64,000 nucleotides of DNA from Candidatus Omnitrophota bacterium (lineage in GTDB: Bacteria > Omnitrophota > Gorgyraeia > Gygaellales > Profunditerraquicolaceae): assembly GCA_041651035.1 (NCBI GenBank), contig JBAZKC010000001.1, forward strand, positions 323,244-387,243, given 5' to 3'. The translations under genes and the position numbers were made by a program. Below are positions 8,547-52,510 of the stretch, one piece after another; position 1 is the first letter of the stretch, and every line of letters starts with the position of its first letter. The notes beneath the pieces are model-generated. The model made no database searches, had not been told where the DNA came from, and was given only the letters and a program-made list of their open reading frames with translations.

Positions 8547-8644
8547 CGACCATCCAAAATCGCCTCCAGAGACATATATTTATCTCCAGACCACTTGATT
8601 TCTTATTTATGTTTATGCGCTTATTATACATCTTCCAGGGATTA

Positions 8645-11347: not shown

Positions 11348-11391
11348 CCTTCAAGAGACCTCGCTTTCCAATTATAATATTTTCTAATGGC

Positions 11392-34236: not shown

Positions 34237-34258
34237 AACCTGATCGTCCTCTTTAGCC

Positions 34259-36684: not shown

Positions 36685-37619
36685 TTTAGATTTAAATAGA
36701 TATGCTTGGTTATCAGGTTATTCGGGGTTATATCAAACGCCGGATAATATGCTTTTACTCCTTTAGGCGCGATGCAGGTGCCGCAGAATTGAAGCAGTTC
36801 GCTGTCCGGCCGCACTTCAATCTTGATATCCTCTCCGGTAGCCGCGTTTGAAGCCGGCGGGCAAATAACGTAAAATGGGATCTTAAAATAGTTTGCCAGA
36901 ATAGCGATCTGGTAAGTGCCGACCTTGTTGGCAATGTCACCGTTCTGCGCCAGATTATCCGAGCCGACTATCACTTTACTAACCCTGCCTTCTTTCATTA
37001 CCTGCGCTGCCATATTATCAGTGATAAGCGTAACTTCAAAACCCGCTTCTTTTAATTCCCAGGCGGTTAAACGGCTGCCTTGCAGATACGGCCGCGTTTC
37101 TGTGGCAATAAAACTGACGGTTTTCCCCTGTTTGCGGCAAATTCCTCCGATCAAAGGCAATAGCCCGCTGATATTACAGTGAGTCAGTATAACATCTTTG
37201 TCGCTTAGTAATTGCGCGCATTCTTCTGCCTGCGCGATGCGCTTAAATTTCAAGCCCTCTAAGAATCCTATGATACCTTTATCCAAAGGAATACCTTGTT
37301 TGTGTAAACCCAGCACTATATCAGTAAGGAATTTAAATGACAGCGTGGGCCGCGCTGTATTAAAGGCATCGGCAACCACAGCCAGTATTTCCACGAGGTT
37401 CTTCTTGTTCTTATTCTGGTTAAATACAAGCAGGAAGGAATACATTACCAGCAAAACCTGGCCTACGGCGCGCGTCTTCATTTGCTTAATGGCCGCTACT
37501 GCCTGTTTATAATTCTTAGCTTTGATATATTTTACTTTATGCGGCAGGAGAGTTTCATCAAGGATGTAAATTGTATTCCCTTTTAATTCTATAGGCCAGA
37601 AAAGCGGTGAGAATCCCAT
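36681..37619 (-). CDS. eIF-2B alpha/beta/delta-family sugar-phosphate isomerase (methylthioribose-1-phosphate isomerase MtnA-like)
   Basis: 312 aa. N-terminal IYILDETLLPH and the e2b2 Rossmann-like core (AQNGDIANKVGTYQIAILA). Confidence 0.6.
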   Translation of the reverse strand: MGFSPLFWPIELKGNTIYILDETLLPHKVKYIKAKNYKQAVAAIKQMKTRAVGQVLLVMYSFLLVFNQNKNKKNLVEILAVVADAFNTARPTLSFKFLTDIVLGLHKQGIPLDKGIIGFLEGLKFKRIAQAEECAQLLSDKDVILTHCNISGLLPLIGGICRKQGKTVSFIATETRPYLQGSRLTAWELKEAGFEVTLITDNMAAQVMKEGRVSKVIVGSDNLAQNGDIANKVGTYQIAILANYFKIPFYVICPPASNAATGEDIKIEVRPDSELLQFCGTCIAPKGVKAYYPAFDITPNNLITKHIYLNLK

Positions 37620-38368
37620 TATTTACCCTCTAACTTTTTTACAGCCCCTAAGGCAATGGTGATTAAGTTTGATTCCGCCATATAATAAAGCGGGTTCATA
37701 AATCCCATTTCGCCGGTTATGACATTATCGCTTACCGCAAGTATTGAGCCGGCCTTAATATTGTAAGTCTGCGCGATAGTTAACAGCGTCGAGGAAACCA
37801 TATCCACGGCAATAGCGCCTTCTTTGCGTTTTGCTTCCACTATCTCCCTGGTCTCGCGTAAAAGAGCGTCTGTGGTCCAGACTGTGCCGCGGTGTATATT
37901 TAACCCCATGTCTTTGGCAACATCATATAAGGTATCGCTGATCTTTTTATCGGCAACTGTCTTAAAATCTTTATCCACATAGTAAGGCGTAACCCCGTCT
38001 CCGCGGATTACTTTATCCGCTATTACTAAATCCCCGACTTTGATATCCTCGCTTAAAGAGCCGCAGGTGCCAATACGAATAATATTCTGTATCCCGGAGT
38101 TACACATTACCTCGCTGGTAATAGAGGTATCGGTAGAGAATCTTCCGCCGTTTATGGCAGTAAGTTTGATCCCCTGATAGGTGCCGGTGTACATGGTGTA
38201 TTCCATAAAAGAAAAATTGCGCACGGGATTTTCTATTTTCTTGATCAACACTTCTAATCTATCTTTCGGGCCGGGGACAATGGCGTATTTGCCCACATCC
38301 TGCGGCCTCAACTGCACCATCTGCGTTAGATCCTTGCCTGTTAAATGAACATCCTTCTGCATCTGCAT
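37619..38368 (-). CDS. PNP/UDP-family nucleoside phosphorylase (candidate MTA/purine nucleoside phosphorylase)
   Basis: PNP_UDP_1 signature (IRIGTCGSL...GDLVIADKV). 249 aa. Start codon overlaps the mtnA-like stop. Confidence 0.6.
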   Translation of the reverse strand: MQMQKDVHLTGKDLTQMVQLRPQDVGKYAIVPGPKDRLEVLIKKIENPVRNFSFMEYTMYTGTYQGIKLTAINGGRFSTDTSITSEVMCNSGIQNIIRIGTCGSLSEDIKVGDLVIADKVIRGDGVTPYYVDKDFKTVADKKISDTLYDVAKDMGLNIHRGTVWTTDALLRETREIVEAKRKEGAIAVDMVSSTLLTIAQTYNIKAGSILAVSDNVITGEMGFMNPLYYMAESNLITIALGAVKKLEGK

Positions 38369-39552: not shown

Positions 39553-40464
39553 TTAAAGAGCAAGTATATTTCCCAAATTACCACCCAGGATATCTTGCTT
39601 ATCCTCTTGCGATATATCCAGGCTGTTTACCGCGTTTATCCCCGCGGCGACATCTTTCTTTGCCGGCCAGTCACTGCCCCAGAGTATATGTTTTGGGCCG
39701 AGCATCTCCAGCGCGGAGAGAAAATTAGTCTTTTTTATATCGCCGCTGGTATCTACGTAAATACTCCTTAAGAAATCCGTGGGCTTGCCTTTTAAGTCTT
39801 TGACAAAATTCATCCCTTTAAGCATCTGATAAGTGGCGTCAAAGCGGTGCTCCAAATGGGTGATCACTCCTCCGAAATAAGCAAAGATAAACTTCAACTT
39901 AGGATAATCACGCAGGATATCCGCCATCAAGAGTTTACCGATACAGATCGTAGTATCAAATACATACTCGGCAACCGGGGTCAATAACGGGTCCTGCACG
40001 CGTTCATAGCCGATAGGATTGACTATCTGCGAATGCACAAATATCGGGATTTTTGATTCTTCAGCCAGCTTGTATAAAGGTAAGAACCTCTGATCATCAA
40101 GATAAATACCGTTGTAGCTGCTGGCTAAAGAAATTGCCTTAAAACCAAATTCCCCTGTGGCGCGCTTGGCCTCTGAGACCATATCCTGCGAGTTATCTAC
40201 CGGCATGATCGCAGCACCAATGAACTTATCAGGGAACTTTTTAATAATCTTGGCTACATGGTCATTATAAATACGCGAGACCATACTCATGCTGCCGAGT
40301 TTTAAATGCGCGTCAGAGGTAGGATATGACAAAACCGCCTTATCAATGCCGGCTGCTTCCATCATCTTTACCTGGGCTTCAATATCTCCCCATGCCTTAT
40401 GGAAGAAATGGGCATTGTTGATGATTTCTTCTGGTAACCAATGCGAGTGGCTGTCTATAATCAT
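39553..40464 (-). CDS. Amidohydrolase-2 family (TIM-barrel metal-dependent hydrolase/decarboxylase, PF04909-like)
   Basis: N-terminal IIDSHSHW metal-binding HxH and further His/Asp ligands (VHSQ, HLEHRFD, GSDWP). 303 aa. Confidence 0.6.
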   Translation of the reverse strand: MIIDSHSHWLPEEIINNAHFFHKAWGDIEAQVKMMEAAGIDKAVLSYPTSDAHLKLGSMSMVSRIYNDHVAKIIKKFPDKFIGAAIMPVDNSQDMVSEAKRATGEFGFKAISLASSYNGIYLDDQRFLPLYKLAEESKIPIFVHSQIVNPIGYERVQDPLLTPVAEYVFDTTICIGKLLMADILRDYPKLKFIFAYFGGVITHLEHRFDATYQMLKGMNFVKDLKGKPTDFLRSIYVDTSGDIKKTNFLSALEMLGPKHILWGSDWPAKKDVAAGINAVNSLDISQEDKQDILGGNLGNILAL

Positions 40465-40465
40465 C

Positions 40466-40855
40466 CTAATGCTCCGTGCTTTTTAAGATCCTCTCGGTCA
40501 TCTCCTTCTCATAAAGCGCCTTGATCTCTTTTAGAGATGATACCCCAAGTGTCCTGGCAATTACTTTCTCTATTGCCCGCAGTTTTAAACACAAAAACGC
40601 GTAATCTCTTTTTAAAGCCTTGCCGTCATATTTTAATTTCAGGCCGGTTTTCTCCTTATTCTCGATATAGGCCTGAAAATCATCAACAAATTTCTTTATT
40701 TCCGGGCTCTGGCGGTTACGCAGTTCTTTTAAGATCAACCTGTCAATCTGGCTTTGCGTAAACTTACGCTCGATCTTATCCAATTCCTCTTTGACAGCCT
40801 TATACAGCCAGATGAGGTATCTCTTTTTAAGGTTTTTCAGGTCTTGCTTATCCAC
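40466..40855 (-). CDS. Hypothetical helical protein
   Basis: 129-aa Lys/Glu-rich ORF overlapping the amidohydrolase start. Confidence 0.35.
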   Translation of the reverse strand: MDKQDLKNLKKRYLIWLYKAVKEELDKIERKFTQSQIDRLILKELRNRQSPEIKKFVDDFQAYIENKEKTGLKLKYDGKALKRDYAFLCLKLRAIEKVIARTLGVSSLKEIKALYEKEMTERILKSTEH

Positions 40856-40862
40856 CGTTTAG

Positions 40863-41471
40863 TTATTTCTTTACCAATTCCGCGTCGTCAAGATAAAGCG
40901 TGCCTTTTGCCGGCGGCAACGGTTCAAACTGGTAACTCTTTATCGGGAAATCTATCTGTCCATTCTTTTCCGCGGTCTGCGGCTGCCAGTCGTCGCGCGC
41001 GACAAATTCCTTGAACGGGCAGACTACCTGTTTCCAGCCTTTAAAATTATCTTCAAAAATATAGCGCGATATCTCACCGCCGTTATCTTTGATGTCAAAA
41101 GCGATCTTTGCCTTATTATCGCTGCCGTACATATAAAAAGCTATGGCATTGTATTTATTCCAGCTCACATCTCCTGCCTTCACCAGCCAGCCGGAATTCT
41201 TAGCGTCTAAATCATAACCTCTGGCTACCCAGATATATCCTCCGGGAACAGCATCATAAGTTACCTTAAGCGACTGTTTGCCTCCGTGCGCGATATCTGT
41301 AGCCGCGCTGACTTCCACGTTTGAACCATTACCAGCCCCGAAATCCACCGTTCCTTCGGGACCGCCGGTAATCATGATCTCAAAACCGTCAATTAATAAT
41401 ATCTCATCCGCGGCAAGGCTCAAACCTGCCAAACTTAAAACCATAACCAGGATCAAAACAGCTGTTTTCAT
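40863..41471 (-). CDS. Secreted beta-sandwich protein, carbohydrate-binding-module-like (CBM11/CIA30-like)
   Basis: Start moved to the internal ATG (41471) with a strong SD (AGGAGGAAGC). Signal peptide MKTAVLILVMVLSLAGLSLAADE. The ORF-track N-terminal extension is the translated leader element. Confidence 0.45.
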   Translation of the reverse strand: MKTAVLILVMVLSLAGLSLAADEILLIDGFEIMITGGPEGTVDFGAGNGSNVEVSAATDIAHGGKQSLKVTYDAVPGGYIWVARGYDLDAKNSGWLVKAGDVSWNKYNAIAFYMYGSDNKAKIAFDIKDNGGEISRYIFEDNFKGWKQVVCPFKEFVARDDWQPQTAEKNGQIDFPIKSYQFEPLPPAKGTLYLDDAELVKK

Positions 41472-41485
41472 AATGCTTCCTCCTT

Positions 41486-41532
41486 TGCCCACAAGGGCAC
41501 ACCCGCGCAATTCCGATAAGCGCGGGGTGTAA
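41486..41532 (-). promoter_or_regulatory. Conserved two-hairpin 5' leader element, copy B
   Basis: mRNA strand reads CCGCGC-uuaucggaauu-GCGCGG then UGCCC-uugu-GGGCA-AAGGAGG. One stem base pair covaries with copy A (U:A to C:G). Confidence 0.5.
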
Positions 41533-41572
41533 GTCCACAGGGACACGCCCGCCACTCCTTTATGGCGGGGCG

Positions 41573-42349
41573 TTATTTACCCGGGTGCGCTTGTTTAAAC
41601 GGTATTACCGGCGCGGTCCAGGGTGTCTGCTGGTTAATAATAGCGATCTCCAACGGACAAACATTTGCCGGCACAGTCAAAGCGAACTTCACCGCGTTTT
41701 CAATTGCCTCGGTTGTCATCAGGCGCGAGGTGTCTGCGGTAATTTCCTTTAATTTGCCGGTTAAGTCAGTATCTGTTACGCCCGGCAGCAAAGAGGTGAT
41801 CTTAATGCCGTGGTCGCGGATCTCCCAAAAGAGCCCTTTTAAGAAAGCACGCAAGCCCACTTTTAAAGAACTATAAACAAGGAAATTACGCGGCAGGGGA
41901 TCGCATAGAGTTGAACCGGAAACCATATTAATGATCGAGCCGCTTTTATTTTTTATCATATCGTTAATTACCAGGCGGATCAACCTGACATAACCTAAGT
42001 AATTCGTATGCGCCAATCTTTCAAAATCCTCAATGGGCTGCTCGTGGAACGGATACTGGCTGGAAACCCCGGCGTTATTGATGAGGATATCTATTTTGCC
42101 GAATTTCGCTTTTGTTTTATTAACCAGGTTTTCCAGGTCCTCTAATTTCGCCACGTCGCAGACCAAAGGCAGCACTTCTACTTTATATTTTTTGGCGATC
42201 TCGCCCGCGGTTTCCTCTAACGGGCCCTGCTGGCGCGCGGCAATGGCAAGATTAATGCCTAAACTCGCGCAGGTGCAGGCAATAGCCTTGCCGATACCGC
42301 GGCTTGCTCCGGTTATAATAGCGGTCTTCCCTTTCAATTCCGTGCTCAT
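41573..42349 (-). CDS. SDR-family ketoreductase (FabG/ActIII-like)
   Basis: TGASRGIGKAIA Rossmann motif, NNAG, and catalytic S...YSSLK. 258 aa. Last gene of the PKS-like operon. Confidence 0.75.
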   Translation of the reverse strand: MSTELKGKTAIITGASRGIGKAIACTCASLGINLAIAARQQGPLEETAGEIAKKYKVEVLPLVCDVAKLEDLENLVNKTKAKFGKIDILINNAGVSSQYPFHEQPIEDFERLAHTNYLGYVRLIRLVINDMIKNKSGSIINMVSGSTLCDPLPRNFLVYSSLKVGLRAFLKGLFWEIRDHGIKITSLLPGVTDTDLTGKLKEITADTSRLMTTEAIENAVKFALTVPANVCPLEIAIINQQTPWTAPVIPFKQAHPGK

Positions 42350-42359
42350 ATTAAGCCTC

Positions 42360-43484
42360 CTAAACTTTTGCGATCAATAACTTCCTATCCAGTAATAATA
42401 ATACTACCAAGCTAAAACCAAAACAAACAAAACTCAAAACAAAACTTTTCTGTATCAACACTCCTCCGATAGCCACACCCAGGCCTCCGGAGACAAAACG
42501 TATGCCGCTGTTTAAACTCGCTGCCTCATGCAGAAAATCCCCGGGCAGGTCAGTAAGCATAGTAGAAAGCCCGGCGTGGTTAAAAGTCCAACCCAGGCCC
42601 CAGATAATCATTAACAGCGCGATAAACAAAACCGGCAGTTTAAATGCCAGGCAAAATATGCTTAAGGCCATCATCAGGATCCCTAAATTTATCGTCTTTA
42701 CCCTGCCCAGCGTATCTGCCAAAATACCCCCGAATGTTTCACCGAAAACTCCGCTTAGGCTGGTCAATGTGATCAAAGAACTGATCAGGAACTGGGAAAA
42801 TCCTAAATCAGATGAAAAATATACTGCCAGCCACTGCTGCACGCCGTGATAGATCAAGCTGATAAAGAATATATAGGTAAAAACCAGAAAGAAATCCCTG
42901 TTTTTAAAGGCGCGCAAATAATTTATTTTAAAACCCACAGCATCTTTCTTAAAGCTCGGCAGGTAAAAATAGATAATAACGCATAATACAAACCCTAACA
43001 CCGCCGGAATAAAGAAAATCAGCCGCCAGTGGACAATCCCGCTTAAGGCCAGGCCTAAAAGAGACGCGATAAACGTCGCTCCAAAGAAAATCCCGACGAA
43101 TTTGCCCCGGGATTTGTCTTCCACGTGCCTGGCAATTAAAATAATCCCCAAAGGAATTACTGAAGCCCCGAATAACCCCATCATGAACCGGGCAAAAAAT
43201 AAGGAATTTATATTTTGCGCCAATGCCGCCAGCAGGTTAGCCAAAGAAAACAAACTAAGGCAGGTTAATTCTACCTTTTTGGCGTCAATCAAACGCACCA
43301 GCGGCCCGTAGACCAAGGCAGCTATGCCGTAAGGCAGCATATACAGCCAGATGATCCTGCCGGCAAATAATTGAGAAAGAGCGAAATCCCTGGCTATGGA
43401 AGGCACCAGTGCTGCAACTGCGGCGACATTAAAAGAAAGCAGCGCGCCTTCTAAACACAAGATAATAAAAGTAGACTTCTTCAC
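42360..43484 (-). CDS. MFS transporter (putative exporter of the cluster product)
   Basis: 374 aa, 12 TM helices. Overlaps the SRPBCC stop by 4 nt. Confidence 0.55.
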   Translation of the reverse strand: MKKSTFIILCLEGALLSFNVAAVAALVPSIARDFALSQLFAGRIIWLYMLPYGIAALVYGPLVRLIDAKKVELTCLSLFSLANLLAALAQNINSLFFARFMMGLFGASVIPLGIILIARHVEDKSRGKFVGIFFGATFIASLLGLALSGIVHWRLIFFIPAVLGFVLCVIIYFYLPSFKKDAVGFKINYLRAFKNRDFFLVFTYIFFISLIYHGVQQWLAVYFSSDLGFSQFLISSLITLTSLSGVFGETFGGILADTLGRVKTINLGILMMALSIFCLAFKLPVLFIALLMIIWGLGWTFNHAGLSTMLTDLPGDFLHEAASLNSGIRFVSGGLGVAIGGVLIQKSFVLSFVCFGFSLVVLLLLDRKLLIAKV

Positions 43485-43966
43485 TTCTTAGTTGCTTCTC
43501 TTTCAATAATTTCTTTAAAGATCTTCAGGTTGTGCCGTGAGCCTTCATTAATAAAGCCCTCGACCTGCTGGTCGGTAAATTTAGCTTTTTCATCCATTTC
43601 AAAATGCTGGATCCAAGCCATCTCCACTGGACAGAAGTCCGTGGTTTGGCATCCTTTAGCCAAAGCCATGCCTGCGGGCTTAGACGTATAAAGCCAGACG
43701 ATCTTCATATATTTAAAAGGAAACAACGGCTCCTGCCTTTGGGCATAAGTAAAATATTTGTCTTTAAAAAGCAGCCGCCAGGAAACCCAGGACTTCCCTT
43801 CTTCGTCAGTAAGGCGGAAGGTGATTTTATTGTCTTTCTTCTCCACGACTTCGGCTTTCTGGTATTCACTGCCAAATAATTCTGTCCAGCGCGGGATATC
43901 GTTAGAAATATCAAAAACCAAATCATACGGGGCGTTAATAATTATTGAATTGCACGTGTGTCCCAT
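43481..43966 (-). CDS. SRPBCC-superfamily protein (polyketide aromatase/cyclase-dehydrase type, Polyketide_cyc2-like)
   Basis: Start at the internal ATG (43966) with SD AAGGAGG. IINAPYDLVFDISNDIPRWTELF is the typical START/Bet v1-like N-terminus. ~160 aa. Confidence 0.55.
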   Translation of the reverse strand: MGHTCNSIIINAPYDLVFDISNDIPRWTELFGSEYQKAEVVEKKDNKITFRLTDEEGKSWVSWRLLFKDKYFTYAQRQEPLFPFKYMKIVWLYTSKPAGMALAKGCQTTDFCPVEMAWIQHFEMDEKAKFTDQQVEGFINEGSRHNLKIFKEIIEREATKK

Positions 43967-44020
43967 ATATAACCTCCTTGCGCAGAAAGCGCACACCGAC
44001 TCCTCCTTTAGAGTCGGGTG

Positions 44021-44821
44021 CTATTCTAATATCGCCACTACGCGCGACCAGGCAGCTCCGGTATTCTTTATCTTTACCGGAAAACAAACCACCTTAAAAC
44101 CAAAAGCAGGCAGTTCCTCTAAATGCGCCAGGCGCTCAATATGTATAAATTCCCTTTTCCTGCCGTAAAAATGCGCCGGATATAACGCGCCCGTTTTTTT
44201 GTTATCCAGAAATTCTTTCAGCATGAATTTATAAGGCCGGTCAATACCCATGGTGTCTGTGCCGAATATTTTTACACCCCTGTCCAGCAAATAATCTATC
44301 GCCGAAATATCTATCCCCGGGTAATCTGTAAAATAACGGGGGCTTCCATAAAATTTATCGGCGCCGGTATGCAAAAGCACGATATCCAGGTTTTTAAGGG
44401 AATAATTTATCTTTTTTAGCGCGCTTTCTAAGTCCTGGGCGGTTATGGTTTCGTTTGGCGTCTTATGCGTAAAGTCAAGATGCACGCCACTAGACATGCA
44501 CCAATCTAATGGGATTTCTTCCGCGGTCTTTGACGGCCTGCCTTCTGATAATGAACCGTAATGAAAGGAGTAATCTAAGTGTGTGCCGACATGAACCGGC
44601 GAATGGACTATTTCTAAAGACAGGAATTCCTGGCCAGGGAGGTCTTCTTTCCGGAGGATACGCTTTCCCAGGATATATTTTATCCTGCCTAAGAAAGTCT
44701 TACCCATAATTACGCGGTTAAACTTTTCCACGCCCTGCTTATGAGACACTCTCTGGATATTTACAGGGTGCACCTCAAAAGCCTTTTCATCAATAGGCAG
44801 GCTTAAGTCAACTATCTTCAT
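44021..44821 (-). CDS. Cyclase-family protein (PF04199; kynurenine formamidase/polyketide cyclase-like)
   Basis: HxGTHxDxPxH motif as HSPVHVGTHLDYSFH. 266 aa. Confidence 0.65.
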   Translation of the reverse strand: MKIVDLSLPIDEKAFEVHPVNIQRVSHKQGVEKFNRVIMGKTFLGRIKYILGKRILRKEDLPGQEFLSLEIVHSPVHVGTHLDYSFHYGSLSEGRPSKTAEEIPLDWCMSSGVHLDFTHKTPNETITAQDLESALKKINYSLKNLDIVLLHTGADKFYGSPRYFTDYPGIDISAIDYLLDRGVKIFGTDTMGIDRPYKFMLKEFLDNKKTGALYPAHFYGRKREFIHIERLAHLEELPAFGFKVVCFPVKIKNTGAAWSRVVAILE

Positions 44822-45055
44822 TTAACTTAATTTTGGTTGGATCACCTTTTCAATATCGTTGATAGTAGAAGACTTGGTTATTTCTTTAGGGCTTAATTTT
44901 ATATTAAAGGTTTTTTCCAGCGCGATAACGGTTTCTACCATTTCCGTGGAATCCACGCCTATGCTGTCCTGTAGCGCTGCGTCGTCTTTTAACTCTTCAA
45001 GCTTCACCTTCAATAATTTCACTAAAACATCTTTGATCTTTGGTTTTATATCCAT
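44822..45055 (-). CDS. Acyl carrier protein
   Basis: 77 aa. Phosphopantetheine-attachment motif IGVDSTEMVETVIALE. Confidence 0.8.
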   Translation of the reverse strand: MDIKPKIKDVLVKLLKVKLEELKDDAALQDSIGVDSTEMVETVIALEKTFNIKLSPKEITKSSTINDIEKVIQPKLS

Positions 45056-45070
45056 ATCGCCTCCCTGTGT

Positions 45071-46531
45071 TTAGATGTGCGCTTCGCCTTTAGTGGCTCC
45101 GGCTTCCCATTTTCCTACGCCTGCCATAACATCCTGGAAACAAAGCTTGGCAAGAGGATCAAAATTGCTTTCCATGATCCGGTTGATCCTGCCGGGTTTA
45201 GAAAAGAATTCGCGCATACACCAGGAACCCAGGCGGCCCAAATCTTCGGTAGTAAGATGATCCGTCGGGATAACCGGATGCAGGAAATCCCAGGTACTGA
45301 AATCAACTTTTTTAGGGTCGATCCAGTTTTTCTTCATGGCGATCCTCCACATCGGGGAATTCGGCGCGGGAGTAACGTAGCCGACCCAGAGGATATCCGG
45401 ATCAACCTGGTCCGTAAACTCAAAGCGCTGCTTGATGATCTCTTCGGTGTCGTAATCAAAACCCATCATAATATCGGCGACGATCGCGATGTCATGCTTG
45501 CGCAGAAGCTCAATGGTTTTTTTGATCTGGTCTAACGTAATACCCTTGGCTATTCTCTTAAGTTCTGACTGCGTGGTAACCTCGATGCCGAATACCCCCA
45601 TAAACAACCCTGTTTCTTTCATTAAGGGAAGTACGGATTCACAATTGACCCAGTCAATGGCGCGGCCCAGGGAAACCCATTTAATATCGATCTTTTTTTG
45701 CTTCTTTAATTCGCAGAATCTCCTGACGCGTTCGGGGTCTACGTTAAAATTATCATCCTGGATAACCACTACCTTTACCCCGTATTTATTCTGCAGAAGT
45801 TCCATCTCCTCTATTACGCGTTCCGGGGATTTGGCGCGCCAGGTCAAGAAATCAGAGGGGTGGCGCGGATCATACTGGTCCCATTCATAACAAAAGGTGC
45901 AGGCAGAAGGGCAGCCGCGCGAGGTCACCATGTCCACAAACGGCTTCCAGTAAGTATGCCCCACGTATTTATCCATGGGAAACAGGTCATATGCCGGTAA
46001 AGGCAATTTATCTAAATCCTGCATAAGCGGTTTGTGCGGCCCCATGACAATCTTACCGTCAATGCGCGAGGTAACGCCGCCGACATCCTTAAGGTTTTTC
46101 TTTTTATCTATAGCCTCAATTAAATCGCCAAAAGACTCCTCTTCGCCCATGACCACAAAATCAACAGCCGGATTCTCTTCCAGCGTCGGAACAGGCATTG
46201 CCGAATACCATAAGCCGCCGAAAATTATCTTTGTTTCAGGCAGTGCCTGCTTGATCTTCTCGGCTGCTTCCTTAAAATGCCTTAATACTCCGTAGCCGCC
46301 ATAGCCATGCAGTTGTTCGCCCATCACCACCACATCGGGATTTTTTGATTTCACCTGTTCGACCAGTTCATCCATCGGGGTTTGAAAGGCCTTACCGTCA
46401 ATAACTGCCACATCCGCGTAACCCCGTTCTCGGACATATGCTGCCCAGTGCGCGTAAAGCTGATTAGGTGACCTGTGTATCCCGTGTGTTGCCCACGCGC
46501 CTACTTTTGGCATTACAAATAGAATCTTCAT
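45071..46531 (-). CDS. B12-binding-domain radical SAM enzyme (class B)
   Basis: N-terminal Rossmann-like B12-binding domain. CxxxCxxC as CPSACTFC. 486 aa. Confidence 0.7.
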   Translation of the reverse strand: MKILFVMPKVGAWATHGIHRSPNQLYAHWAAYVRERGYADVAVIDGKAFQTPMDELVEQVKSKNPDVVVMGEQLHGYGGYGVLRHFKEAAEKIKQALPETKIIFGGLWYSAMPVPTLEENPAVDFVVMGEEESFGDLIEAIDKKKNLKDVGGVTSRIDGKIVMGPHKPLMQDLDKLPLPAYDLFPMDKYVGHTYWKPFVDMVTSRGCPSACTFCYEWDQYDPRHPSDFLTWRAKSPERVIEEMELLQNKYGVKVVVIQDDNFNVDPERVRRFCELKKQKKIDIKWVSLGRAIDWVNCESVLPLMKETGLFMGVFGIEVTTQSELKRIAKGITLDQIKKTIELLRKHDIAIVADIMMGFDYDTEEIIKQRFEFTDQVDPDILWVGYVTPAPNSPMWRIAMKKNWIDPKKVDFSTWDFLHPVIPTDHLTTEDLGRLGSWCMREFFSKPGRINRIMESNFDPLAKLCFQDVMAGVGKWEAGATKGEAHI

Positions 46532-46553
46532 AAAACCTCCATGTTAGATTTTA

Positions 46554-47786
46554 CTATTTACCTTTTTCAATCACCAATACAGAATTTATGCCGCCTCTCC
46601 CGCGGGAGATTATTAAAGCCTTATTTATTTTATGCTCCCTGGCTTCTTTTGTAACATAATTCAGGCCGGGGAAGACAGGAGTATCTAAATTCAACGTGGG
46701 GGGTATCAAACTGTTCTCCATCGCCAGGATCGCGATGATCAAGTCCACGGCGCCTGAAGCACCCAGCAGGTTCCCGAACATAGACTTAGGGCAGCTGACA
46801 GGTATACTTTTAAGTTTCCCGCCAAAAACATTCTTTAATGCTTCTATCTCTGAATTATCCCAGATATCTACAGCTAATCCGTCTAAACTAATATAATTAA
46901 TCTCATCCGGGGATGCTTCTGCGTCGGCAAGGGCAGTCTTGATCGCCCGGGCCAATTGCCGGCCGTCTAAGGCGGGATTGATCCTGTCTTCTCCATCGCA
47001 GCTTGTCCCGAATCCGGAAACATACGCTAATATATTCGCCCCGCGGCCAAGCGCGCGCTCTCCCGGCTCCATTACCATAATGCCGGCACCCTCTCCGATA
47101 ACAAAACCGCTGCGTTTTTTATCAAAAGGCCTGTAGGCAGCCTGGGGGTGGGCGTTATCAGTAGATAACCCGCCGTAAGTATTGCAGCATAAAAGCGCGT
47201 AAGGCGTAACCGGCGCTTCCATGCCGCCGGCCAGGATCATATCTAATTTTTGCTTAGCCAGAGTCTTGCGCGCGTAACCAATGGCCTCAATTGAACTGGC
47301 CCTGTCCGCTACAATAGTCTTGCTAAAACCCTTTATCCCGTAATAAATGGAAACCTGGCCCTGTGGCGCTGCCGGAAACCACGCCGAGGCCATATATGGG
47401 GAAACCCCTTCACGGCCCTCCAGATATAGATCGCGTAATTCCGTCTCCGCGTATAACCATCCGCCTATGGCATTACCTAAAAATATGCCTACCAGGTTAG
47501 GGTCTTCTTTCTTGATGTCTATACCCGCATCCTGCAAGGCAAGCTCTGAGGCGATCAGCGCCATATGCGAAAAAGCATCGATCTTTTTTAAAAGGCGCTC
47601 TGAAACGTGGCTGTATTTTTCCAGGTCATCTATCTGTCCGGCGATATGAGCGGGATATTTAGAGGCGTCAAAACGGGTGATCTCCTTAATAAACGACCTG
47701 CCGGCTTTGATATTGGCCCAGAATTGCCGGCGGCCTATTCCCGACGGAGCAACTATGCCTAAACCCGTAACCGCGACTTTTTTCAC
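46554..47786 (-). CDS. Ketosynthase-fold protein lacking the Cys-His-His triad (KS-beta / chain-length-factor-like)
   Basis: Aligns along its length with the adjacent KS. The active-site Cys position reads IVADRASS. The His positions read CDGEDR and SLDGLAV. Its start overlaps the KS stop by 1 nt. Confidence 0.7.
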   Translation of the reverse strand: MKKVAVTGLGIVAPSGIGRRQFWANIKAGRSFIKEITRFDASKYPAHIAGQIDDLEKYSHVSERLLKKIDAFSHMALIASELALQDAGIDIKKEDPNLVGIFLGNAIGGWLYAETELRDLYLEGREGVSPYMASAWFPAAPQGQVSIYYGIKGFSKTIVADRASSIEAIGYARKTLAKQKLDMILAGGMEAPVTPYALLCCNTYGGLSTDNAHPQAAYRPFDKKRSGFVIGEGAGIMVMEPGERALGRGANILAYVSGFGTSCDGEDRINPALDGRQLARAIKTALADAEASPDEINYISLDGLAVDIWDNSEIEALKNVFGGKLKSIPVSCPKSMFGNLLGASGAVDLIIAILAMENSLIPPTLNLDTPVFPGLNYVTKEAREHKINKALIISRGRGGINSVLVIEKGK

Positions 47787-49048
47787 TATACCTCCAGACG
47801 TTTAAGGATTAATGATGAATGTATGCCTGAGAATCCGCTTGAAGTCTTAAGGATAGTCTTTACTTTCTTGGCCCGTGCCACATTGGGGATGTAATCCAAG
47901 TCGCAGCGGGGATCTTTTTCCTCCTGGTTTATCGTGGGAGGAAGAATATCTTTCTGAAAGATCATGGAACAAACTACCAGCTCTATGGCATTGGCCGCGG
48001 CCAAGGGATGGCCGATCATGGATTTTAAGGAACTGGCCGGAAGTTTATACGCGTAATCCCCAAAGACCATTTTATAAGCGGAAGTCTCAAATATATCATT
48101 CATGCGCGTGGATGAACCGTGCGCGTTAATGTAATCTATGCCTTGCGGTTTTATATCCGCGTCTTTAAGCGCTAAATTAATACAATTAGCCATGGCTGAG
48201 CCGTCGGATGGCAAATCCGTCATATGGAAGGCATTGCAGCTTGTGCCAAAACCCGCTACTTCAGCGTAAATATGGGCGTTGCGTTTTAAAGCATGGCCTA
48301 GCTCTTCCAGGATCAATATGCCTGCCCCCTCTGAAAGTACAAACCCATCGCGCTTGTTATCAAACGGCCTGCTGGCAGCTTCCGGCCGGTCATTACGCGC
48401 GGACAGTACATTAACCACGTCAAAGGCGCCAAAGGTAACTGGAGTGATCGGCGCCTCCGCGGCTCCAGCGAACATTATGTCCTGTTCACCGTCCTGAATG
48501 ACCTCTAAAGCAAACCCTAATGAATCAGTTCCCGCGGTACAACCCGTAGAAAGCGTGTTACAAATACCCTTTAACCCGAGCCTAGCTGATATTTCAATGG
48601 AAGGCGTATTAAACATCGCCGCGTCATACAGATCCGGCCTTACTTTTGACGGATCAATGGGATTCTTGCCGTCGTCGGTAACTAAGGCGAATTCCTCTTC
48701 CATATATTTTGTTCCGCAGATAGCATTGGCAAGGCAGACCCCGATGCGCTGGGGATCTTCTTTAGATAAAACTAATCCACTGTCTTTTAAGGCCATATCT
48801 CCGCAGACTACGCCAAACTGCACATATCTATCCATGCGCACCGCTTCTTCATGCGTAAGGCCGAGTTTGAAAGGATCAAAATCGCGCACTTCCGCGGCGA
48901 TCCTGGTATTAAATAGAGATACATCAAAGCCATCTACCAGTTTTACCGCTGATTTTCCCGATGACATTGCCTGCCAAACGTTATCCTTACCTATGCCGTT
49001 AGGCGAAACCACCCCTACTCCCGTAATAACCACTCTTCTCTTTGCCAT
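47786..49048 (-). CDS. Beta-ketoacyl synthase (KS-alpha / FabF-like condensing enzyme)
   Basis: Active-site Cys (LSTGCTAGTDS) and both His (FHMTD, NAHGSST). Also GHPLAAAN. 420 aa. Confidence 0.8.
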   Translation of the reverse strand: MAKRRVVITGVGVVSPNGIGKDNVWQAMSSGKSAVKLVDGFDVSLFNTRIAAEVRDFDPFKLGLTHEEAVRMDRYVQFGVVCGDMALKDSGLVLSKEDPQRIGVCLANAICGTKYMEEEFALVTDDGKNPIDPSKVRPDLYDAAMFNTPSIEISARLGLKGICNTLSTGCTAGTDSLGFALEVIQDGEQDIMFAGAAEAPITPVTFGAFDVVNVLSARNDRPEAASRPFDNKRDGFVLSEGAGILILEELGHALKRNAHIYAEVAGFGTSCNAFHMTDLPSDGSAMANCINLALKDADIKPQGIDYINAHGSSTRMNDIFETSAYKMVFGDYAYKLPASSLKSMIGHPLAAANAIELVVCSMIFQKDILPPTINQEEKDPRCDLDYIPNVARAKKVKTILKTSSGFSGIHSSLILKRLEV

Positions 49049-49049
49049 T

Positions 49050-49652
49050 TTACTTTTCTTTATCCTCTTGGACCCGCCTTACTTTAAAAACAATATTTCC
49101 CCCGTCGGGACAAGTGACCGTATCTATGGAGTCAGGGTCTTCCATAAAGAAGAACTTGGCTCCGAAATTAAGCGCGAAAAGCGCCGGAAATGCCGTATGG
49201 AACGCCGCGCCGCAGAAACCGGGGATACATTTCAAACCTTGCGTCTCCCATTTATCCCCGACTTTATAACCAAAAGCGCATTTACCTTTTGCCTTGGCTA
49301 CCTCAATTATCATTTTCTTAGGGTTAGGCCCCTTAAAATCAGGGTCCTTAGGCAATACTTTGACCTTACCCTCTTTGTCTAAAACCTCCGCCTTAAATTC
49401 CAGCTTACCTCCGTCGGGGCAAGTTACTAACAATGAATGCTGGTTATCGCGGAAGCCGAATTTTGCCCCAAAACTTAAAGCATAGGCAACCGGAAAAAGC
49501 GCGTGGGCCAACCCCAGGCAAAAATACTTAGGCGCGTGCGTGAAATCTTCAAGTACCAGCTCATCGCCGATCTTATAACCATGATAACAATGGCCGAAGA
49601 CATTGGTTACCGTAAGTTTTAATTTAGGAAAAGGAGAATTGATCTCGTTCAC
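49050..49652 (-). CDS. Tandem-duplicated small Cys-rich domain protein (TIGR04076-like, x2)
   Basis: Two ~95-aa repeats, each with C..GYK.GD, C.G.(A/C)..A....FP...AL.FGAKF and VTCPDGG..(E/V)FK. The family assignment is from memory. Confidence 0.45.
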   Translation of the reverse strand: MNEINSPFPKLKLTVTNVFGHCYHGYKIGDELVLEDFTHAPKYFCLGLAHALFPVAYALSFGAKFGFRDNQHSLLVTCPDGGKLEFKAEVLDKEGKVKVLPKDPDFKGPNPKKMIIEVAKAKGKCAFGYKVGDKWETQGLKCIPGFCGAAFHTAFPALFALNFGAKFFFMEDPDSIDTVTCPDGGNIVFKVRRVQEDKEK

Positions 49653-50647
49653 AGGCCTTTTATATTATTCAGTAATTCTTCCTTGGTAAAAAACTTCCGC
49701 GTTTGTTCAACTTTATGCACCATCTCCACTAATTTCTTATTCAAAGGAGCGTTTAGTTTATACTTCTCGGCTATAAGCAGAAACTCGCCATTTATATAAT
49801 CGATCTCGGAAGCCTTTCCTCTTTTTATGCTCTGCAATATTGAGCCGTAAAGCGGCTCTTTGTTTAGATTAATCATGATACCGGAAAATATCTTCGCTGC
49901 TTCCAGATTAGGCATAGAAGTCAATTTTGTCAGCCTCTCTAATGGGAAATCCGGCAAAGACAACAACCGGATACCTGCTTTATCCATGATATCCAGGCCT
50001 TCTTTCCATATGGCAATACTGATACTGCTAATATCTATATCCAAGAACGCTTCCTGCATGCTTACGCCTAGTATCGCCGGTATACAATTATTGGCATTAA
50101 CGAATATCTTAAGGTACTTCATTCCCTTTAAGTCTTCTGCTACGATAGTAGGGAAGGCTTTATCTAAAACCCGGCTTATTTCTACCGTCTTTTCATCATT
50201 ATTAGTGAACGCCCTGCCAATGATCCAGCTGCCTTCAAAATTATGCGCTATCTTGCCCCGCTCTAAATAAGTAGCGCCAAACATGACAATGCTGGAGATT
50301 ATATTCTCAGCAGGAACATACTTGGCAACTATACCATCTGCGGCTATCCCGTTTTGAGTAGTCAAGATCGTAGCACTGCCGATAAATCCCAGGTTCTCTT
50401 TTACCGCTCGCTCAACATCCTGTACTTTTGTAGCCAGGATCACCAAGTCAGGGCTTTGGGATAGCTTTTCCTGCGCGTCTATCCGGATATTAAAATCACC
50501 CCTTACTCCGGAAATCTGTAACCCATTTTCTTTTATCGCCCTTATCGAATCAGCGCTGCCCGATAAAGAGACATCCGCGTTTTTAAGTTTTAAATACCCT
50601 GCCACCAGGCCGCCTATTGCCCCGCTTCCGACTACCGCTATCTTCAT
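49649..50647 (-). CDS. Ketopantoate reductase family (PanE/ApbA-like) NAD(P)H-dependent reductase
   Basis: MKIAVVGSGAIGGLVAGYL Rossmann N-terminus and the ApbA C-terminal helical domain. 332 aa. Confidence 0.65.
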   Translation of the reverse strand: MKIAVVGSGAIGGLVAGYLKLKNADVSLSGSADSIRAIKENGLQISGVRGDFNIRIDAQEKLSQSPDLVILATKVQDVERAVKENLGFIGSATILTTQNGIAADGIVAKYVPAENIISSIVMFGATYLERGKIAHNFEGSWIIGRAFTNNDEKTVEISRVLDKAFPTIVAEDLKGMKYLKIFVNANNCIPAILGVSMQEAFLDIDISSISIAIWKEGLDIMDKAGIRLLSLPDFPLERLTKLTSMPNLEAAKIFSGIMINLNKEPLYGSILQSIKRGKASEIDYINGEFLLIAEKYKLNAPLNKKLVEMVHKVEQTRKFFTKEELLNNIKGL

Positions 50648-50665
50648 TTTATACCTTTTGTGATC

Positions 50666-51004
50666 TTATTGCTGCCGCCTGGGAAAACCGTATTTTTTAT
50701 AATCAAACCCTGTCTGCTCTAATAACCTGATCATCATGCCATAGAATGGCGAAGGCACATCGCAAAAAAAGGCAGCTATCACGTCCTGCTCTTCAATCTG
50801 CTTAGCTTGCCTGAGTGAGGCGTTCTCCTGGGCTCTCTTAGTTACCGCTTCTTCGGTAATGTGACGGTGGAAAACGGGGATCTTAGAGATCATCAGCTGG
50901 AACTTTGTCTTAACTTCATTATTCCAATCCATGGGATTTTCCCTTCTCTGGTAATAGTAAAATTTTACTATTCCAATTTTACCGACCAAGCCAAATTTTG
51001 TCAA
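50666..51004 (-). CDS. PCP-reductase-domain-like small protein (PF08369-like); true start may be the ATG at 50932
   Basis: WNNEVKTKFQLMISKIPVFHRHITEEAVTKRAQENASLRQAKQIEEQDV matches the W..EA...L..IP.FVR...E..A pattern of the BchB/ChlB C-terminal domain. Confidence 0.35.
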   Translation of the reverse strand: MTKFGLVGKIGIVKFYYYQRRENPMDWNNEVKTKFQLMISKIPVFHRHITEEAVTKRAQENASLRQAKQIEEQDVIAAFFCDVPSPFYGMMIRLLEQTGFDYKKYGFPRRQQ

Positions 51005-51047
51005 GCAATTTCTTAATAGCTATTTATCTAATGAACTTGGAGAGGAA

Positions 51048-51566
51048 TCAGACTGTTTTTATCAGGGTCAAGAGGAACTTTGATTCCGTTTCTACCATTT
51101 GGAGGTTATGTTCCAGTATGCGCTTCAAGGGTAATGGTATCCCCTGTTTATACTTCAGGCGAAGCATTTGTTTTAGGTCGCGGGATAATTTATTTAAAAT
51201 AAATACCCGGCCCTTTAGCCTCCTGCGGGCAATATTGGAATTTATATAGGACAAGAAATACAGGCTTAGATCTAAGCTAAAATGCGGGCGTTTAAAATCC
51301 AGGAAGCTGGCGGAAAGCAGCTTATCAAAACGCGCCTGCCCGCTCTTGCTTAAGGCGTAGACAAAACGCTGCGGGCGCCTGCCTTGTTTGGCTGTGTGCT
51401 TTATCACTAACCCTTTTTTCTCTAATAAATTTAAAGGGTAATATATGGACTTTGGCTCTAAGCCGGCGAATAGAGATAAGATCTCTTTGATTTTCTTCTT
51501 TATCTCGTATCCATGCTTGGGGCTCTCTTTGAGCAAACCCAACAGCAACAGCTCATGCTCGATCAT
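51048..51566 (-). CDS. PadR-family transcriptional regulator
   Basis: LLLLGLLKESPKHGYEIKKKI...SIYYPLNLLEKKGLV winged-HTH PadR signature. 172 aa. Confidence 0.75.
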   Translation of the reverse strand: MIEHELLLLGLLKESPKHGYEIKKKIKEILSLFAGLEPKSIYYPLNLLEKKGLVIKHTAKQGRRPQRFVYALSKSGQARFDKLLSASFLDFKRPHFSLDLSLYFLSYINSNIARRRLKGRVFILNKLSRDLKQMLRLKYKQGIPLPLKRILEHNLQMVETESKFLLTLIKTV

Positions 51567-52510
51567 CCTATGACACCCATGTTCCTGAATCTCTTATATC
51601 TTAATTCCAGCAATTCTTTCTTATCCAGCGTACCAAGAGCCTTCAAATTCCTGTTTATCGCTTCTTTCAATGCCGCGGCTGTTTTCTGGGGATCGCGGTG
51701 CGCGCCGCCTAAAGGCTCCGGCACTACTTCATCAATAATGCCCATCTTTAACAAATCCTGCGCGGTCAATTTTAATACCTCCGCTGCTTCGGGCGCTTTT
51801 GCTCCGTCCTTCCACAATATCGCAGCACACCCTTCCGGAGAGATAACTGAATAATAAGCATTTTCCAGGACTAAAACACGGTCCGCTATTCCCACTCCTA
51901 ACGCCCCGCCTGAGCCGCCTTCACCAATGACTATGGCTATTATGGGTACGGATATACCCATCATCTCTCTTAAATTAAGCGCTATAGCCAGCGACTGGCC
52001 GCGTTCCTCCGCGCCTATGCCAGGATAGGCGCCGGGCGTATCTATAAATACCACGATAGGCAGGTTAGATGCTTCAGCTAATTGCATGATCCTCAGCGCC
52101 TTACGATACCCTTCGGGATGCGCGCAACCGAAATTACGCTTGAGGTTTTCTTTGGTGTCTCTCCCTTTCTGATGCCCCATGATAACCAGCTTTTGGCCGT
52201 CTAATTTAACCAAGCCGCAAACCATCGCCTTATCGTCGGCAAAAACCCTATCCCCATGCAATTCTATAAAATCAGACATGAGCATGTTAATATAATCCAA
52301 TGTATAGGGCCTGGTGGGATACCTGGCCAGCTGCACTCTTTGCCAGGCAGTTAAATCACTGTAGATGCTTTTCTTTAAATGCTCGAGCTTATCTTCCAGG
52401 CGCCTGACCTCGGAAGAAAGATCGATTTTTTTATCCGAAATGAAATTCTTCAGTTCCTCGATCTTCTTTTCCAGCTCTACAATAGGTTTTTCGAAATCAA
52501 GTCCAGCCAT
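51563..52510 (-). CDS. accA: Acetyl-CoA carboxylase carboxyltransferase alpha subunit
   Basis: 315 aa. AccA blocks (IVVFIDTPGAYPG, GEGGSGGAL). The stop overlaps the padR start by 4 nt. Confidence 0.85.
   Translation of the reverse strand: MAGLDFEKPIVELEKKIEELKNFISDKKIDLSSEVRRLEDKLEHLKKSIYSDLTAWQRVQLARYPTRPYTLDYINMLMSDFIELHGDRVFADDKAMVCGLVKLDGQKLVIMGHQKGRDTKENLKRNFGCAHPEGYRKALRIMQLAEASNLPIVVFIDTPGAYPGIGAEERGQSLAIALNLREMMGISVPIIAIVIGEGGSGGALGVGIADRVLVLENAYYSVISPEGCAAILWKDGAKAPEAAEVLKLTAQDLLKMGIIDEVVPEPLGGAHRDPQKTAAALKEAINRNLKALGTLDKKELLELRYKRFRNMGVIG

Follow-up and report, generated by a model that had tools for sequence, protein, structure and literature searches.

A probable aromatic type II polyketide synthase operon of the ancestral type, conserved across Omnitrophota

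The window analyzed here is a 64,000-nt stretch of contig JBAZKC010000001.1 (assembly GCA_041651035.1; positions 323,244 to 387,243 of the forward strand) from a Candidatus Omnitrophota bacterium, and it carries on its minus strand a tightly packed set of genes bearing the features of polyketide synthases (PKSs) of type II. A preliminary description made from the DNA letters had proposed a block of 13 co-directional open reading frames (ORFs) between positions 41573 and 52510, running from accA to a FabG-like ketoreductase gene, in a non-actinobacterial diderm. All 13 minus-strand ORFs were recovered, and the host assignment is borne out by the source names of homologues: those close homologues that have one come from Candidatus Omnitrophica/Omnitrophota, most proteins being listed nameless. 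Nearly all of the proposed family calls passed curated cutoffs, except that of a "PCP-reductase-like" small protein, which matches only PF11084 (DUF2621), below its gathering threshold (GA). The core of the block, i.e., an active ketosynthase (KS-alpha), a dead partner (KS-beta), an acyl carrier protein (ACP), an SRPBCC protein, a PF04199 cyclase, and a short-chain dehydrogenase/reductase (SDR), indeed forms a cassette of type II PKS genes that corresponds to the Photorhabdus Ant or "ancestral" kind. In our view, the region probably constitutes an operon that encodes an aromatic type II PKS of ancestral type and has been inherited vertically within Omnitrophota. The conserved unit spans about 50932 to 39553, with the gene of the small DUF2621-like protein first and an Amidohydro_2 gene last. 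Unless a related locus is named, coordinates are those of the window and refer to its minus strand. For locus comparisons, 26 proteins of the window were run by tblastn against 83 loci, which come from at least 80 species-representative genomes.

KS-alpha (47786..49048) and KS-beta (46554..47786) both match PF00109/PF02801, and the start of KS-beta overlaps the KS-alpha stop by 1 nt. KS-alpha is an active-type ketosynthase with the active-site motif STGCTAGTDS and a Cys170-His310-His347 triad that is intact in 80 of 81 relatives. KS-beta, similar to chain length factors (CLFs), has Arg in place of Cys170, Asp in place of His310, and Asn in place of His347 (KS-alpha numbering), a pattern identical in 83/83 relatives, which agrees with its earlier reading as an inactive partner. 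A whole-library HMMER search recovered many 50%-identity clusters carrying the Cys-to-Arg motif DR(A/S)(S/G) of KS-beta. Four further proteins (P0242, P0249, P0252, and P0254) are single polypeptides of ~810 to 870 aa in which an active KS with the Cys-His-His triad is fused to a dead KS-beta-like half, of the Arg variant in P0252; these look like naturally fused KS-alpha/KS-beta pairs, related to the present KS family.

Comparison with the PDB ranked the actinorhodin (act) KS-alpha first for the window KS-alpha (398 bits), with AntD at 380 bits and every FabF at 344 bits or less. In a neighbor-joining (NJ) tree with 100 bootstraps, KS-alpha fell within a clade (bootstrap, 99) together with AntD and the KS-alpha proteins of Leptolyngbya, Clostridium beijerinckii, and Nitrospirota. 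KS-beta belonged to a clade of dead KS partners (97% bootstrap) that includes the C. beijerinckii and Leptolyngbya KS-beta proteins, with the Nitrospirota KS-beta as its sister (bootstrap, 83). FabF of Escherichia coli and Bacillus subtilis lay outside both clades, and neither protein reached the fabF equivalog TIGR03150 (459 bits for KS-alpha and 375 bits for KS-beta; cutoff, 493.75). A housekeeping FabF/FabB identity of the pair was thus rejected on the fabF cutoff, the missing triad of KS-beta, and the position of both proteins in the tree. The preliminary description had made its case depend on the KS pair not lying inside the FabF/FabB clades, and the tree places the pair elsewhere, as do the PDB scores for KS-alpha.

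The remaining members of the cassette lie downstream of the KS genes. The ACP (44822..45055; PF00550, 42.5 bits) retains the phosphopantetheine Ser in 63 of 63 loci and scores below the housekeeping acpP cutoffs. It is followed by the PF04199 cyclase (44021..44821; 103 bits), which holds the OxyN/AntC-type position of "ancestral" type II PKS clusters (PMC7693217). Its metal motif HxGTHxDxxxH is likewise kept in 63/63 loci, its best PDB sequence match is a weak one to isatin hydrolase (31 bits), and in the loci of C. beijerinckii, Nitrospirota, and Leptolyngbya its orthologues (41 to 49% identity) have the SRPBCC gene as their neighbor. The SRPBCC gene of the window (43481..43996; true start probably ATG 43966) encodes a TcmN-like monodomain protein that, judged by sequence, is a candidate first-ring aromatase/cyclase. 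It matches PF03364 with 28.7 bits (GA, 23.4) and PF10604 with 17.6 bits, below GA, whereas its orthologues carry matches to both models; with its SRPBCC counterparts in distant type II PKS loci it shares 39 to 48% identity. Checked against the HMM thresholds, as had been advised, the SRPBCC (PF03364) and PF04199 calls both pass. The SDR (41573..42349) scored 169 bits with PF00106 and 38.7 bits with the ketoreductase model PF08659, but it reached no FabG equivalog cutoff and its nearest PDB match is clavaldehyde dehydrogenase (108 bits); we regard it as a candidate polyketide ketoreductase, and its median identity across loci is 85 to 86%. Between the SRPBCC and SDR genes lies that of a major facilitator superfamily (MFS) transporter (42360..43484; PF07690, 160 bits), an optional member found in 44 loci, versus 58 for the SDR, and missing from this position in ~14 loci.

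Beyond the SDR gene, which had been taken as the last of the block, tight co-directional packing continues through three more genes separated by 17, 7, and 1 nt. The first (40863..41555) encodes a secreted CBM_11-domain protein (PF03425, 64.6 bits) of doubtful membership, a variable passenger present in only 35 loci. The second (40466..40855) encodes a 129-aa protein with no family match that usually sits between SDR and Amidohydro_2 genes (46 loci; median identity, 54%). The third and last block gene (39553..40464) encodes an Amidohydro_2 protein of the ACMSD/LigW type (PF04909, 88.6 bits). Its nearest PDB entries are 5-carboxyvanillate decarboxylase (LigW; 76 bits), ACMSD (72 bits), and gamma-resorcylate decarboxylase (66 bits), which makes it a candidate nonoxidative aromatic-acid decarboxylase. 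Its N-terminal HxH metal site is kept in 52/52 loci, and none of the rearranged loci (L015, L024, L076, L087, and L089) has the gene separated from the block; a homologue with 33% identity occurs in the C. beijerinckii locus. The proposed 3′ boundary is therefore too short, since Amidohydro_2 and, more loosely, a neighboring acyl-CoA ligase/PNP/MtnA/aldolase/aldehyde dehydrogenase set belong with the block. No malonyl-CoA:ACP transacylase (MCAT) or phosphopantetheinyl transferase (PPTase) gene was found within the block, and a domain scan of the 39.5- to 51-kb interval found no dehydratase, transferase, LolA, or MMPL domain. Aryl-polyene clusters combine two active KS proteins and a CLF-like one with dehydratases (ApeI/ApeP), two ACPs, acyl/glycosyltransferases, and LolA-like/MMPL export genes. 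Given the lack of the four domains and the grouping of KS-alpha with aromatic PKS ketosynthases, an aryl-polyene cluster was discarded as a candidate.

Three genes precede KS-alpha. The first encodes the small DUF2621-like protein (50666..50932; 88 aa), whose longest ORF starts at 51004; ATG 50932 yields the 88-aa form found elsewhere. It scored 26.6 to 27.2 bits with PF11084, just under the GA of 27.7, and has orthologues in 67 Omnitrophota loci and, with 43 to 46% identity, at the head of the Nitrospirota loci L085 and L088. The second gene encodes an ApbA/PanE-family NAD(P)H oxidoreductase (49649..50647; PF02558, 102.8 bits; PF08546, 56 bits; TIGR00745, 166.7 bits versus a cutoff of 141) that is kept in the Omnitrophota and Nitrospirota loci (50% identity in the latter). 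The third (49050..49652) encodes a tandem TIGR04076 protein with two Cys/His-rich repeats (92.8 bits; cutoff, 33), for which a homologue search returned only Omnitrophota proteins of 80 to 88% identity. The family takes three forms in these loci, i.e., the tandem protein in Omnitrophota, two single-domain genes at the same position in Nitrospirota, and an ACP fusion in Clostridium. The latter is a 175-aa protein encoded directly after KS-beta in the C. beijerinckii locus L084 (GCA_013296325.1; positions 11260-11787), with TIGR04076 at residues 5 to 81 (42.7 bits; cutoff, 33) and ACP at approximately residues 98 to 166 (22.3 bits; cutoff, 20.8). Because of this fusion and the conserved gene position, we propose for the tandem TIGR04076 protein the possible role of an accessory subunit that associates with ACP in this PKS lineage.

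Between KS-beta and ACP lies the gene of a class B (B12-binding) radical S-adenosylmethionine (SAM) enzyme (45071..46531; PF02310, 43.8 bits; PF04055, 79.8 bits). Its CxxxCxxC motif, CPSACTFC, is kept in 72 of the 77 relatives scored, the remaining 5 alignments stopping short of the motif, and its median identity of 88 to 89% exceeds that of every other block gene. The best NCBIfam model is that of BchE (anaerobic Mg-protoporphyrin monomethyl ester cyclase, TIGR02026), at 213.6 bits versus a cutoff of 481, followed by HpnJ (165 bits); membership in TIGR02026 was discarded accordingly, as was that in the lipid/ladderane radical SAM family TIGR04072 (78.9 bits; cutoff, 360). The best PDB sequence match is weak (AprD4, 58 bits). 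The gene occupies three different positions among Omnitrophota-type loci (the window, L087, and L089), and none of the Nitrospirota, Clostridium, and Leptolyngbya loci examined contains it; it is a lineage-specific addition. C-methylation is the commonest class B radical SAM chemistry and is most likely the reaction catalyzed here; the alternative, an O2-independent BchE-like oxidation, would suit strict anaerobes. A precedent for radical SAM tailoring of a type II PKS anthraquinone by C-methylation is CoeI, a HemN-like methylase of the coelulatin cluster (PMC9714029). CoeI, however, comes from an actinobacterial-type cluster and is of class C (HemN-like), whereas the enzyme described here is of class B and nearest, below cutoffs, to BchE and HpnJ. 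The window holds a second B12-binding radical SAM gene (55625-56971) that is 24% identical to the cluster enzyme and absent from all 83 related loci; its best match is the C-methyltransferase family of ribosomally synthesized and posttranslationally modified peptide (RiPP) maturation, TIGR03975 (113 bits; cutoff, 282).

The radical SAM gene also brings up a specialized lipid pathway, in which a reduced or branched acyl chain would be methylated or cross-linked by this enzyme into a ladderane-like or branched membrane lipid and the "cyclases" would serve in other ways. This reading draws on the very high conservation of the block, as expected of a membrane component, on the presence of two reductases and of a neighbor fused to an SCP2 domain (see below), on the KAS II subfamily match of KS-alpha, and on "ladderane"-type clusters reported by antiSMASH in Omnitrophota metagenome-assembled genomes (MAGs) (PMC9902471). 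It is nevertheless quite improbable, for the block encodes neither a dehydratase nor an enoyl reductase, the radical SAM enzyme falls far from the TIGR04072 cutoff, KS-alpha falls among ketosynthases of aromatic PKSs, aromatic type II PKS loci hold the orthologues of the cyclase and SRPBCC genes, and an aromatic-acid decarboxylase homologue is a fixed member.

The genes from accA to SDR had been described as separated by gaps or overlaps of 0 to 4 nt. Taking the longest ORFs, the 12 junctions of the 13 genes measure −4, 43, 18, −4, 1, −1, 22, 15, 0, 24, −4, and 10 nt, so that the figure holds for some junctions and others reach 43 nt. If the small gene starts at ATG 50932, its gap to PadR widens to ~115 nt and accommodates a sigma-70-like promoter (TTGACA-17-TAAAAT; 50976..51004) between the PadR stop and the small-gene start. 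This site was the best match of a 16-kb scan (11/12 positions). Matches in the scan were overall at chance level (33 promoters versus 28 expected; 22 terminators versus 19), and only the top promoter match was used, because its position is conserved: a TTGACA box lies upstream of a palindrome in most related loci. The palindrome of the window, ATAGTAAAATTTTACTAT (50954..50971, strandless), is a perfect 18-bp one and a candidate operator, and it is the sole match in the window when up to three mismatches are allowed. Promoter-like site, palindrome, ribosome-binding site, and ATG 50932 thus follow one another 3′ of PadR. The 16-mer core of the palindrome occurs exactly, and once, in each of 62 related loci, in 59 of them just upstream of the small gene; in L063 it lies ~250 nt further upstream. 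L015 and L024 have two copies in tandem ahead of an acyl-CoA ligase gene that heads the order ligase-PNP-(MtnA)-aldehyde dehydrogenase-small gene-ApbA, and in the more distant locus L089 degenerate copies precede ligase-small gene-ApbA. The operon would be transcribed from its own promoter and controlled via this strictly conserved candidate operator. An Rfam scan found no riboswitch or other RNA within the cluster; elsewhere in the window, at 8536-8593, it returned a match to an nhaA-I riboswitch-like RNA (41.2 bits; gathering score, 37).

This arrangement separates the block from accA (51563-52510) and PadR (51048-51566; Pfam score, 53.8 bits), which family matches and locus comparison identify as neighbors rather than members. 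The accA product scored 492 bits with PF03255 and 496 bits with the housekeeping equivalog (cutoff, 357). In the related loci accA and PadR invariably occur side by side, but in roughly half of these loci the pair is detached from the PKS block or absent: in 7 distinct loci, 4.4 to 6.5 kb separate it from the small gene, and it was undetected by tblastn upstream of the small gene in ~20 loci having at least 4 kb of upstream sequence. Since accA/PadR is distant or undetected in many related loci, accA is an ordinary housekeeping gene and not the dedicated malonyl-CoA supply gene that had been supposed, a role also contradicted by the conserved promoter/operator that the operon possesses downstream of PadR. 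The same observations bear on whether the region could be a housekeeping elongation module of type II fatty acid synthesis, assembled from accA, a FabF/FabB-like KS pair, ACP, and FabG. The adjacency of accA in the window, source annotations naming both KS proteins "beta-ketoacyl-ACP synthase," and the lack of any other KS in the window would favor such a module. We find it scarcely credible, because KS-beta is devoid of the Cys, His, and His residues throughout its relatives, both KS proteins remain below the fabF cutoff and outside FabF in the tree, linkage to accA is missing in about half of the loci, no fabD, fabH, fabZ, or fabI lies nearby, and the ACP does not reach the acpP cutoffs.

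On its other side, the block is followed by a 231-aa ORF (38602-39297) that matches no family and is missing from all related loci. Situated between Amidohydro_2 and PNP, it resembles an insertion specific to this strain, and L001 has CrcB and DUF190 genes in its place. Next comes a loosely linked module of five genes, identified by family matches (32722..38368), that encode a PNP_UDP_1 phosphorylase (37619-38368), an MtnA-like isomerase (36681-37619), a class II aldolase-SCP2 fusion (35698-36684), an aldehyde dehydrogenase (34259-35701), and an acyl-CoA ligase (32722-34236). Past the ligase lie RlmN, a GDSL lipase, tRNAs, and LeuRS. The module flanks the PKS block on one side or the other in every arrangement seen, and in L015, L024, and L089 its acyl-CoA ligase gene heads the operon as the first gene behind the conserved operator. 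These arrangements suggest that the module is associated with the PKS unit and sometimes cotranscribed with it. From their family matches, the phosphorylase, isomerase, and aldolase presumably resemble the 5′-deoxyadenosine/methylthioadenosine "DHAP shunt," which disposes of radical SAM by-products. The aldolase, however, has a C-terminal SCP2 lipid-binding domain (23.8 bits; GA, 21.3), and the same fusion occurs in L087 and L089. Such a domain is unusual on a sugar-phosphate aldolase and hints at a hydrophobic substrate, which leaves roles other than the DHAP shunt open.

To place the block in its lineage, we scanned one genome per GTDB species with a profile of diverse Arg-type KS-beta proteins. 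The best 80 of more than 571 matches have 77 to 87% KS-beta identity and are labeled mostly as Omnitrophota, ~17 of them as "Planctomycetales" and two generically as "bacterium." The Planctomycetales-labeled MAGs (L014, L021, L022, L033, L038, L045, L048 to L051, L056, L057, L061, L077, and L080; L048 and L050 are two contigs of one MAG and the same locus) have KS-beta identities of 77 to 81% and the synteny of the Omnitrophota loci, and their NCBI labels are probably placeholder or misassigned names. Across the 83 loci the order small gene-ApbA-tandem TIGR04076-KS-alpha-KS-beta-radical SAM-ACP-cyclase-SRPBCC-(MFS)-SDR-(CBM_11)-129-aa ORF-Amidohydro_2 is invariant, with the optional genes in parentheses. 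In the subset of 20 loci in which accA is present as well, the median identity to the window was 89% for the radical SAM enzyme, 86% for the SDR, 83.5% for TIGR04076, 81% for KS-alpha, and 80% for KS-beta, versus 77.6% for the housekeeping accA, 74% for DUF212, and 66.5% for ComM. Pairwise KS identities correlated with those of accA (Pearson coefficients of 0.86 and 0.91; 378 pairs) to the extent seen with the housekeeping control DUF212 (0.87). As KS divergence tracks that of accA, we take the operon to be vertically inherited; the pattern fits descent under strong constraint.

Such conservation is hard to reconcile with a conventional accessory secondary-metabolite cluster, whose product would be an exported bioactive aromatic polyketide serving antagonism or predation, with no core role. 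The architecture is that of antibiotic and pigment clusters of Photorhabdus, Clostridium, and Dendrosporobacter, an MFS exporter is encoded in the window and in 44 loci, and Omnitrophota are thought to be host dependent or predatory (PMC10066038), all of which this explanation would accommodate. Yet accessory biosynthetic gene clusters are normally patchy and fast evolving, whereas at least 80 species have this block at one and the same chromosomal site amid housekeeping genes, and the block surpasses accA in conservation while codiverging with it, dispenses with the exporter in ~14 loci, and has an exactly conserved noncoding operator. We regard an accessory cluster as unlikely.

Relatives in other phyla, the contexts of which were obtained by a second profile search plus contig look-ups, are consistent with the ancestral-type PKS reading. 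Nitrospirota, Clostridium, and Leptolyngbya share the KS-alpha/KS-beta/ACP/cyclase/SRPBCC core, with orthologues at 39 to 60% identity, and some distant loci add TIGR04076, ApbA, DUF2621, or Amidohydro_2. Hillenmeyer and Hertweck defined the ancestral non-actinomycete architecture as KS-CLF-ACP-TcmN-OxyN (PMC7693217), and the loci of Omnitrophota and of the other phyla match it. The Nitrospirota loci L085 and L088 are the closest cross-phylum relatives, with 60% identity in KS-alpha, 54% in KS-beta, and the gene order of the window for the shared genes: DUF2621-like, aldehyde:ferredoxin oxidoreductase, ApbA, two TIGR04076 genes, KS-alpha, KS-beta, ACP, cyclase, SRPBCC, and a flavin mononucleotide (FMN) reductase. 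They differ in having the aldehyde:ferredoxin oxidoreductase and the FMN reductase and in lacking the B12-radical SAM, SDR, MFS, and Amidohydro_2 genes. Just upstream of the cluster, L088 also encodes a Peptidase_U32 protein with a C-terminal DUF2621-like region (positions 2774-4216). U32 proteins include O2-independent hydroxylases such as UbiU/UbiV, and this one would fit anaerobic oxygenation of an aromatic product.

The C. beijerinckii locus L084 resembles the window in its strict-anaerobe context, in KS-alpha (46% identity), an Arg-type KS-beta (43%), the PF04199 cyclase (46%), SRPBCC (39%), and Amidohydro_2 (33%), and in having a TIGR04076 domain after KS-beta. That domain is a single one fused to ACP, unlike the free tandem protein of the window, and the locus has PPTases, KAS III, CMD, DUF362/DUF169, hydrolases, and an ABC exporter, whereas it lacks the B12-radical SAM, ApbA, DUF2621-like, and SDR genes. 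The Leptolyngbya locus L086 is a classical aromatic cluster of KS-alpha, KS-beta, ACP, PPTase, CoA ligase, cyclase, and SRPBCC that also carries O-methyltransferases and an ABM protein.

Two characterized systems invite comparison. The antA-I cluster for AQ-256 of Photorhabdus laumondii (AntD/AntE; PDB 6SMO) likewise belongs to a non-actinobacterial diderm and combines an active KS-alpha and a divergent CLF with ACP, an SDR ketoreductase, a PF04199 cyclase, an SRPBCC aromatase, and an associated CoA-ligase gene. It differs in its TcmN-TcmN didomain (PMC7693217), a monodomain SRPBCC protein in the window, and in its PPTase and AntI-type lyase, both lacking from our block, which for its part adds the B12-radical SAM, tandem TIGR04076, ApbA, DUF2621-like, and Amidohydro_2 genes and the Arg/Asp/Asn variant of KS-beta. 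Furthermore, Ant is confined to a genus, whereas the window cluster is conserved across a whole lineage. The actinorhodin KS/CLF (PDB 1TQY), the best PDB match of KS-alpha, shares with it the GCT(S/A)G motif, the logic of a heterodimer of active and inactive KS, and translationally coupled genes. Its CLF has Gln where the window has Arg, gene order and tailoring set differ, and the window cluster has no O2-dependent oxygenases.

The combination had been called without parallel in described pathways. This stands for the B12-radical SAM gene, which is specific to the lineage, and not for TIGR04076, the small gene, and ApbA, which are shared with Nitrospirota, or for the TIGR04076 association as such, which recurs in the Clostridium ACP fusion; in addition, a 2023 catalogue had already placed Candidatus Omnitrophica among 14 phyla with KS-CLF pairs (PMC10132072). 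"Polyketide" is absent from a major Omnitrophota genomics paper, where only ubiquinone/menaquinone genes are discussed (PMC10066038), and in the literature on TIGR04076 and on polyketides or menaquinone in Omnitrophota we found no description of this operon. Nowhere in the literature searched did we find its lineage-wide fixation and constraint, the conserved operator, the B12-radical SAM member, the TIGR04076/ApbA/DUF2621-like set shared with Nitrospirota, or the Clostridium TIGR04076-ACP fusion.

Several points weigh against the ancestral-type aromatic PKS reading. The simple NJ tree was built without the act CLF and AntE, and its act KS-alpha node has only 63% bootstrap; KS-alpha passes the cutoff of the broad NF005589 "KAS II" subfamily (447 versus 387 bits). 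KS-beta has Arg, not the Gln of canonical CLFs, and in phmmer it scores higher with FabF (285 bits) than with the act CLF (256 bits). This ranking is not diagnostic, because the Leptolyngbya KS-beta, from an obvious aromatic PKS cluster, likewise scores nearer to FabF than to the act CLF. Nor is the Gln, which actinobacterial CLFs use for decarboxylative priming, general: the characterized AntE also lacks it and has Asp in its place (PMC6638757), so that the Gln would mark an actinobacterial subgroup rather than the ancestral one. Among the other members, the protein of the window itself supports the SRPBCC call only marginally, the sequence of the SDR is a generic one, and the radical SAM enzyme belongs to no characterized equivalog, so its reaction is a guess. 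For the C. beijerinckii relative, identity with the clostrubin clr locus is no more than probable. Finally, no product is known for any member, and chain length is not readable from sequence here.

On the reading of the region as an ancestral-type aromatic PKS operon, we propose the following pathway. The FabD of the cell would malonylate holo-ACP, and KS-alpha/KS-beta would build a poly-beta-keto chain by iterative malonyl condensation on ACP. The SDR would then reduce one keto group, and the SRPBCC protein and the PF04199 cyclase would fold and aromatize the rings. The LigW/ACMSD-type Amidohydro_2 protein could decarboxylate the released ortho/para-hydroxy aromatic acid, and the ApbA-type reductase and the B12-radical SAM enzyme may tailor the scaffold. 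Because the genes exceed housekeeping genes in conservation, codiverge with them, and often go without the exporter, a constitutive role in the cell is probable for the product, as a redox-active or envelope-associated aromatic compound, rather than acting as an accessory antibiotic. A bolder version, possible but put forward only tentatively, is that of a lineage-wide primary pathway in which an aromatic core made by the PKS undergoes decarboxylation and O2-free radical SAM modification and TIGR04076 is a new ACP-partner subunit of anaerobic type II PKSs, the product being a quinone-like redox-active or envelope compound needed by these anaerobic nanobacteria.

In the usual view, type II PKSs produce accessory antibiotics and pigments and belong mostly to actinomycetes. 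The present one is fixed across at least 80 species of ultrasmall anaerobes that make up an uncultured phylum, and its conservation above that of an essential fatty-acid gene, together with the exact operator core in 62 loci, suggests a constitutive role for an aromatic polyketide. The operon provides two biochemical leads, namely, that the uncharacterized family TIGR04076 appears to be a PKS/ACP partner and that a type II scaffold may undergo B12-radical SAM tailoring in the absence of oxygen. With its compact size (~11 kb), the gene set suits heterologous expression from organisms that cannot be grown. The operon also offers a look at the "ancestral" form of type II synthases.

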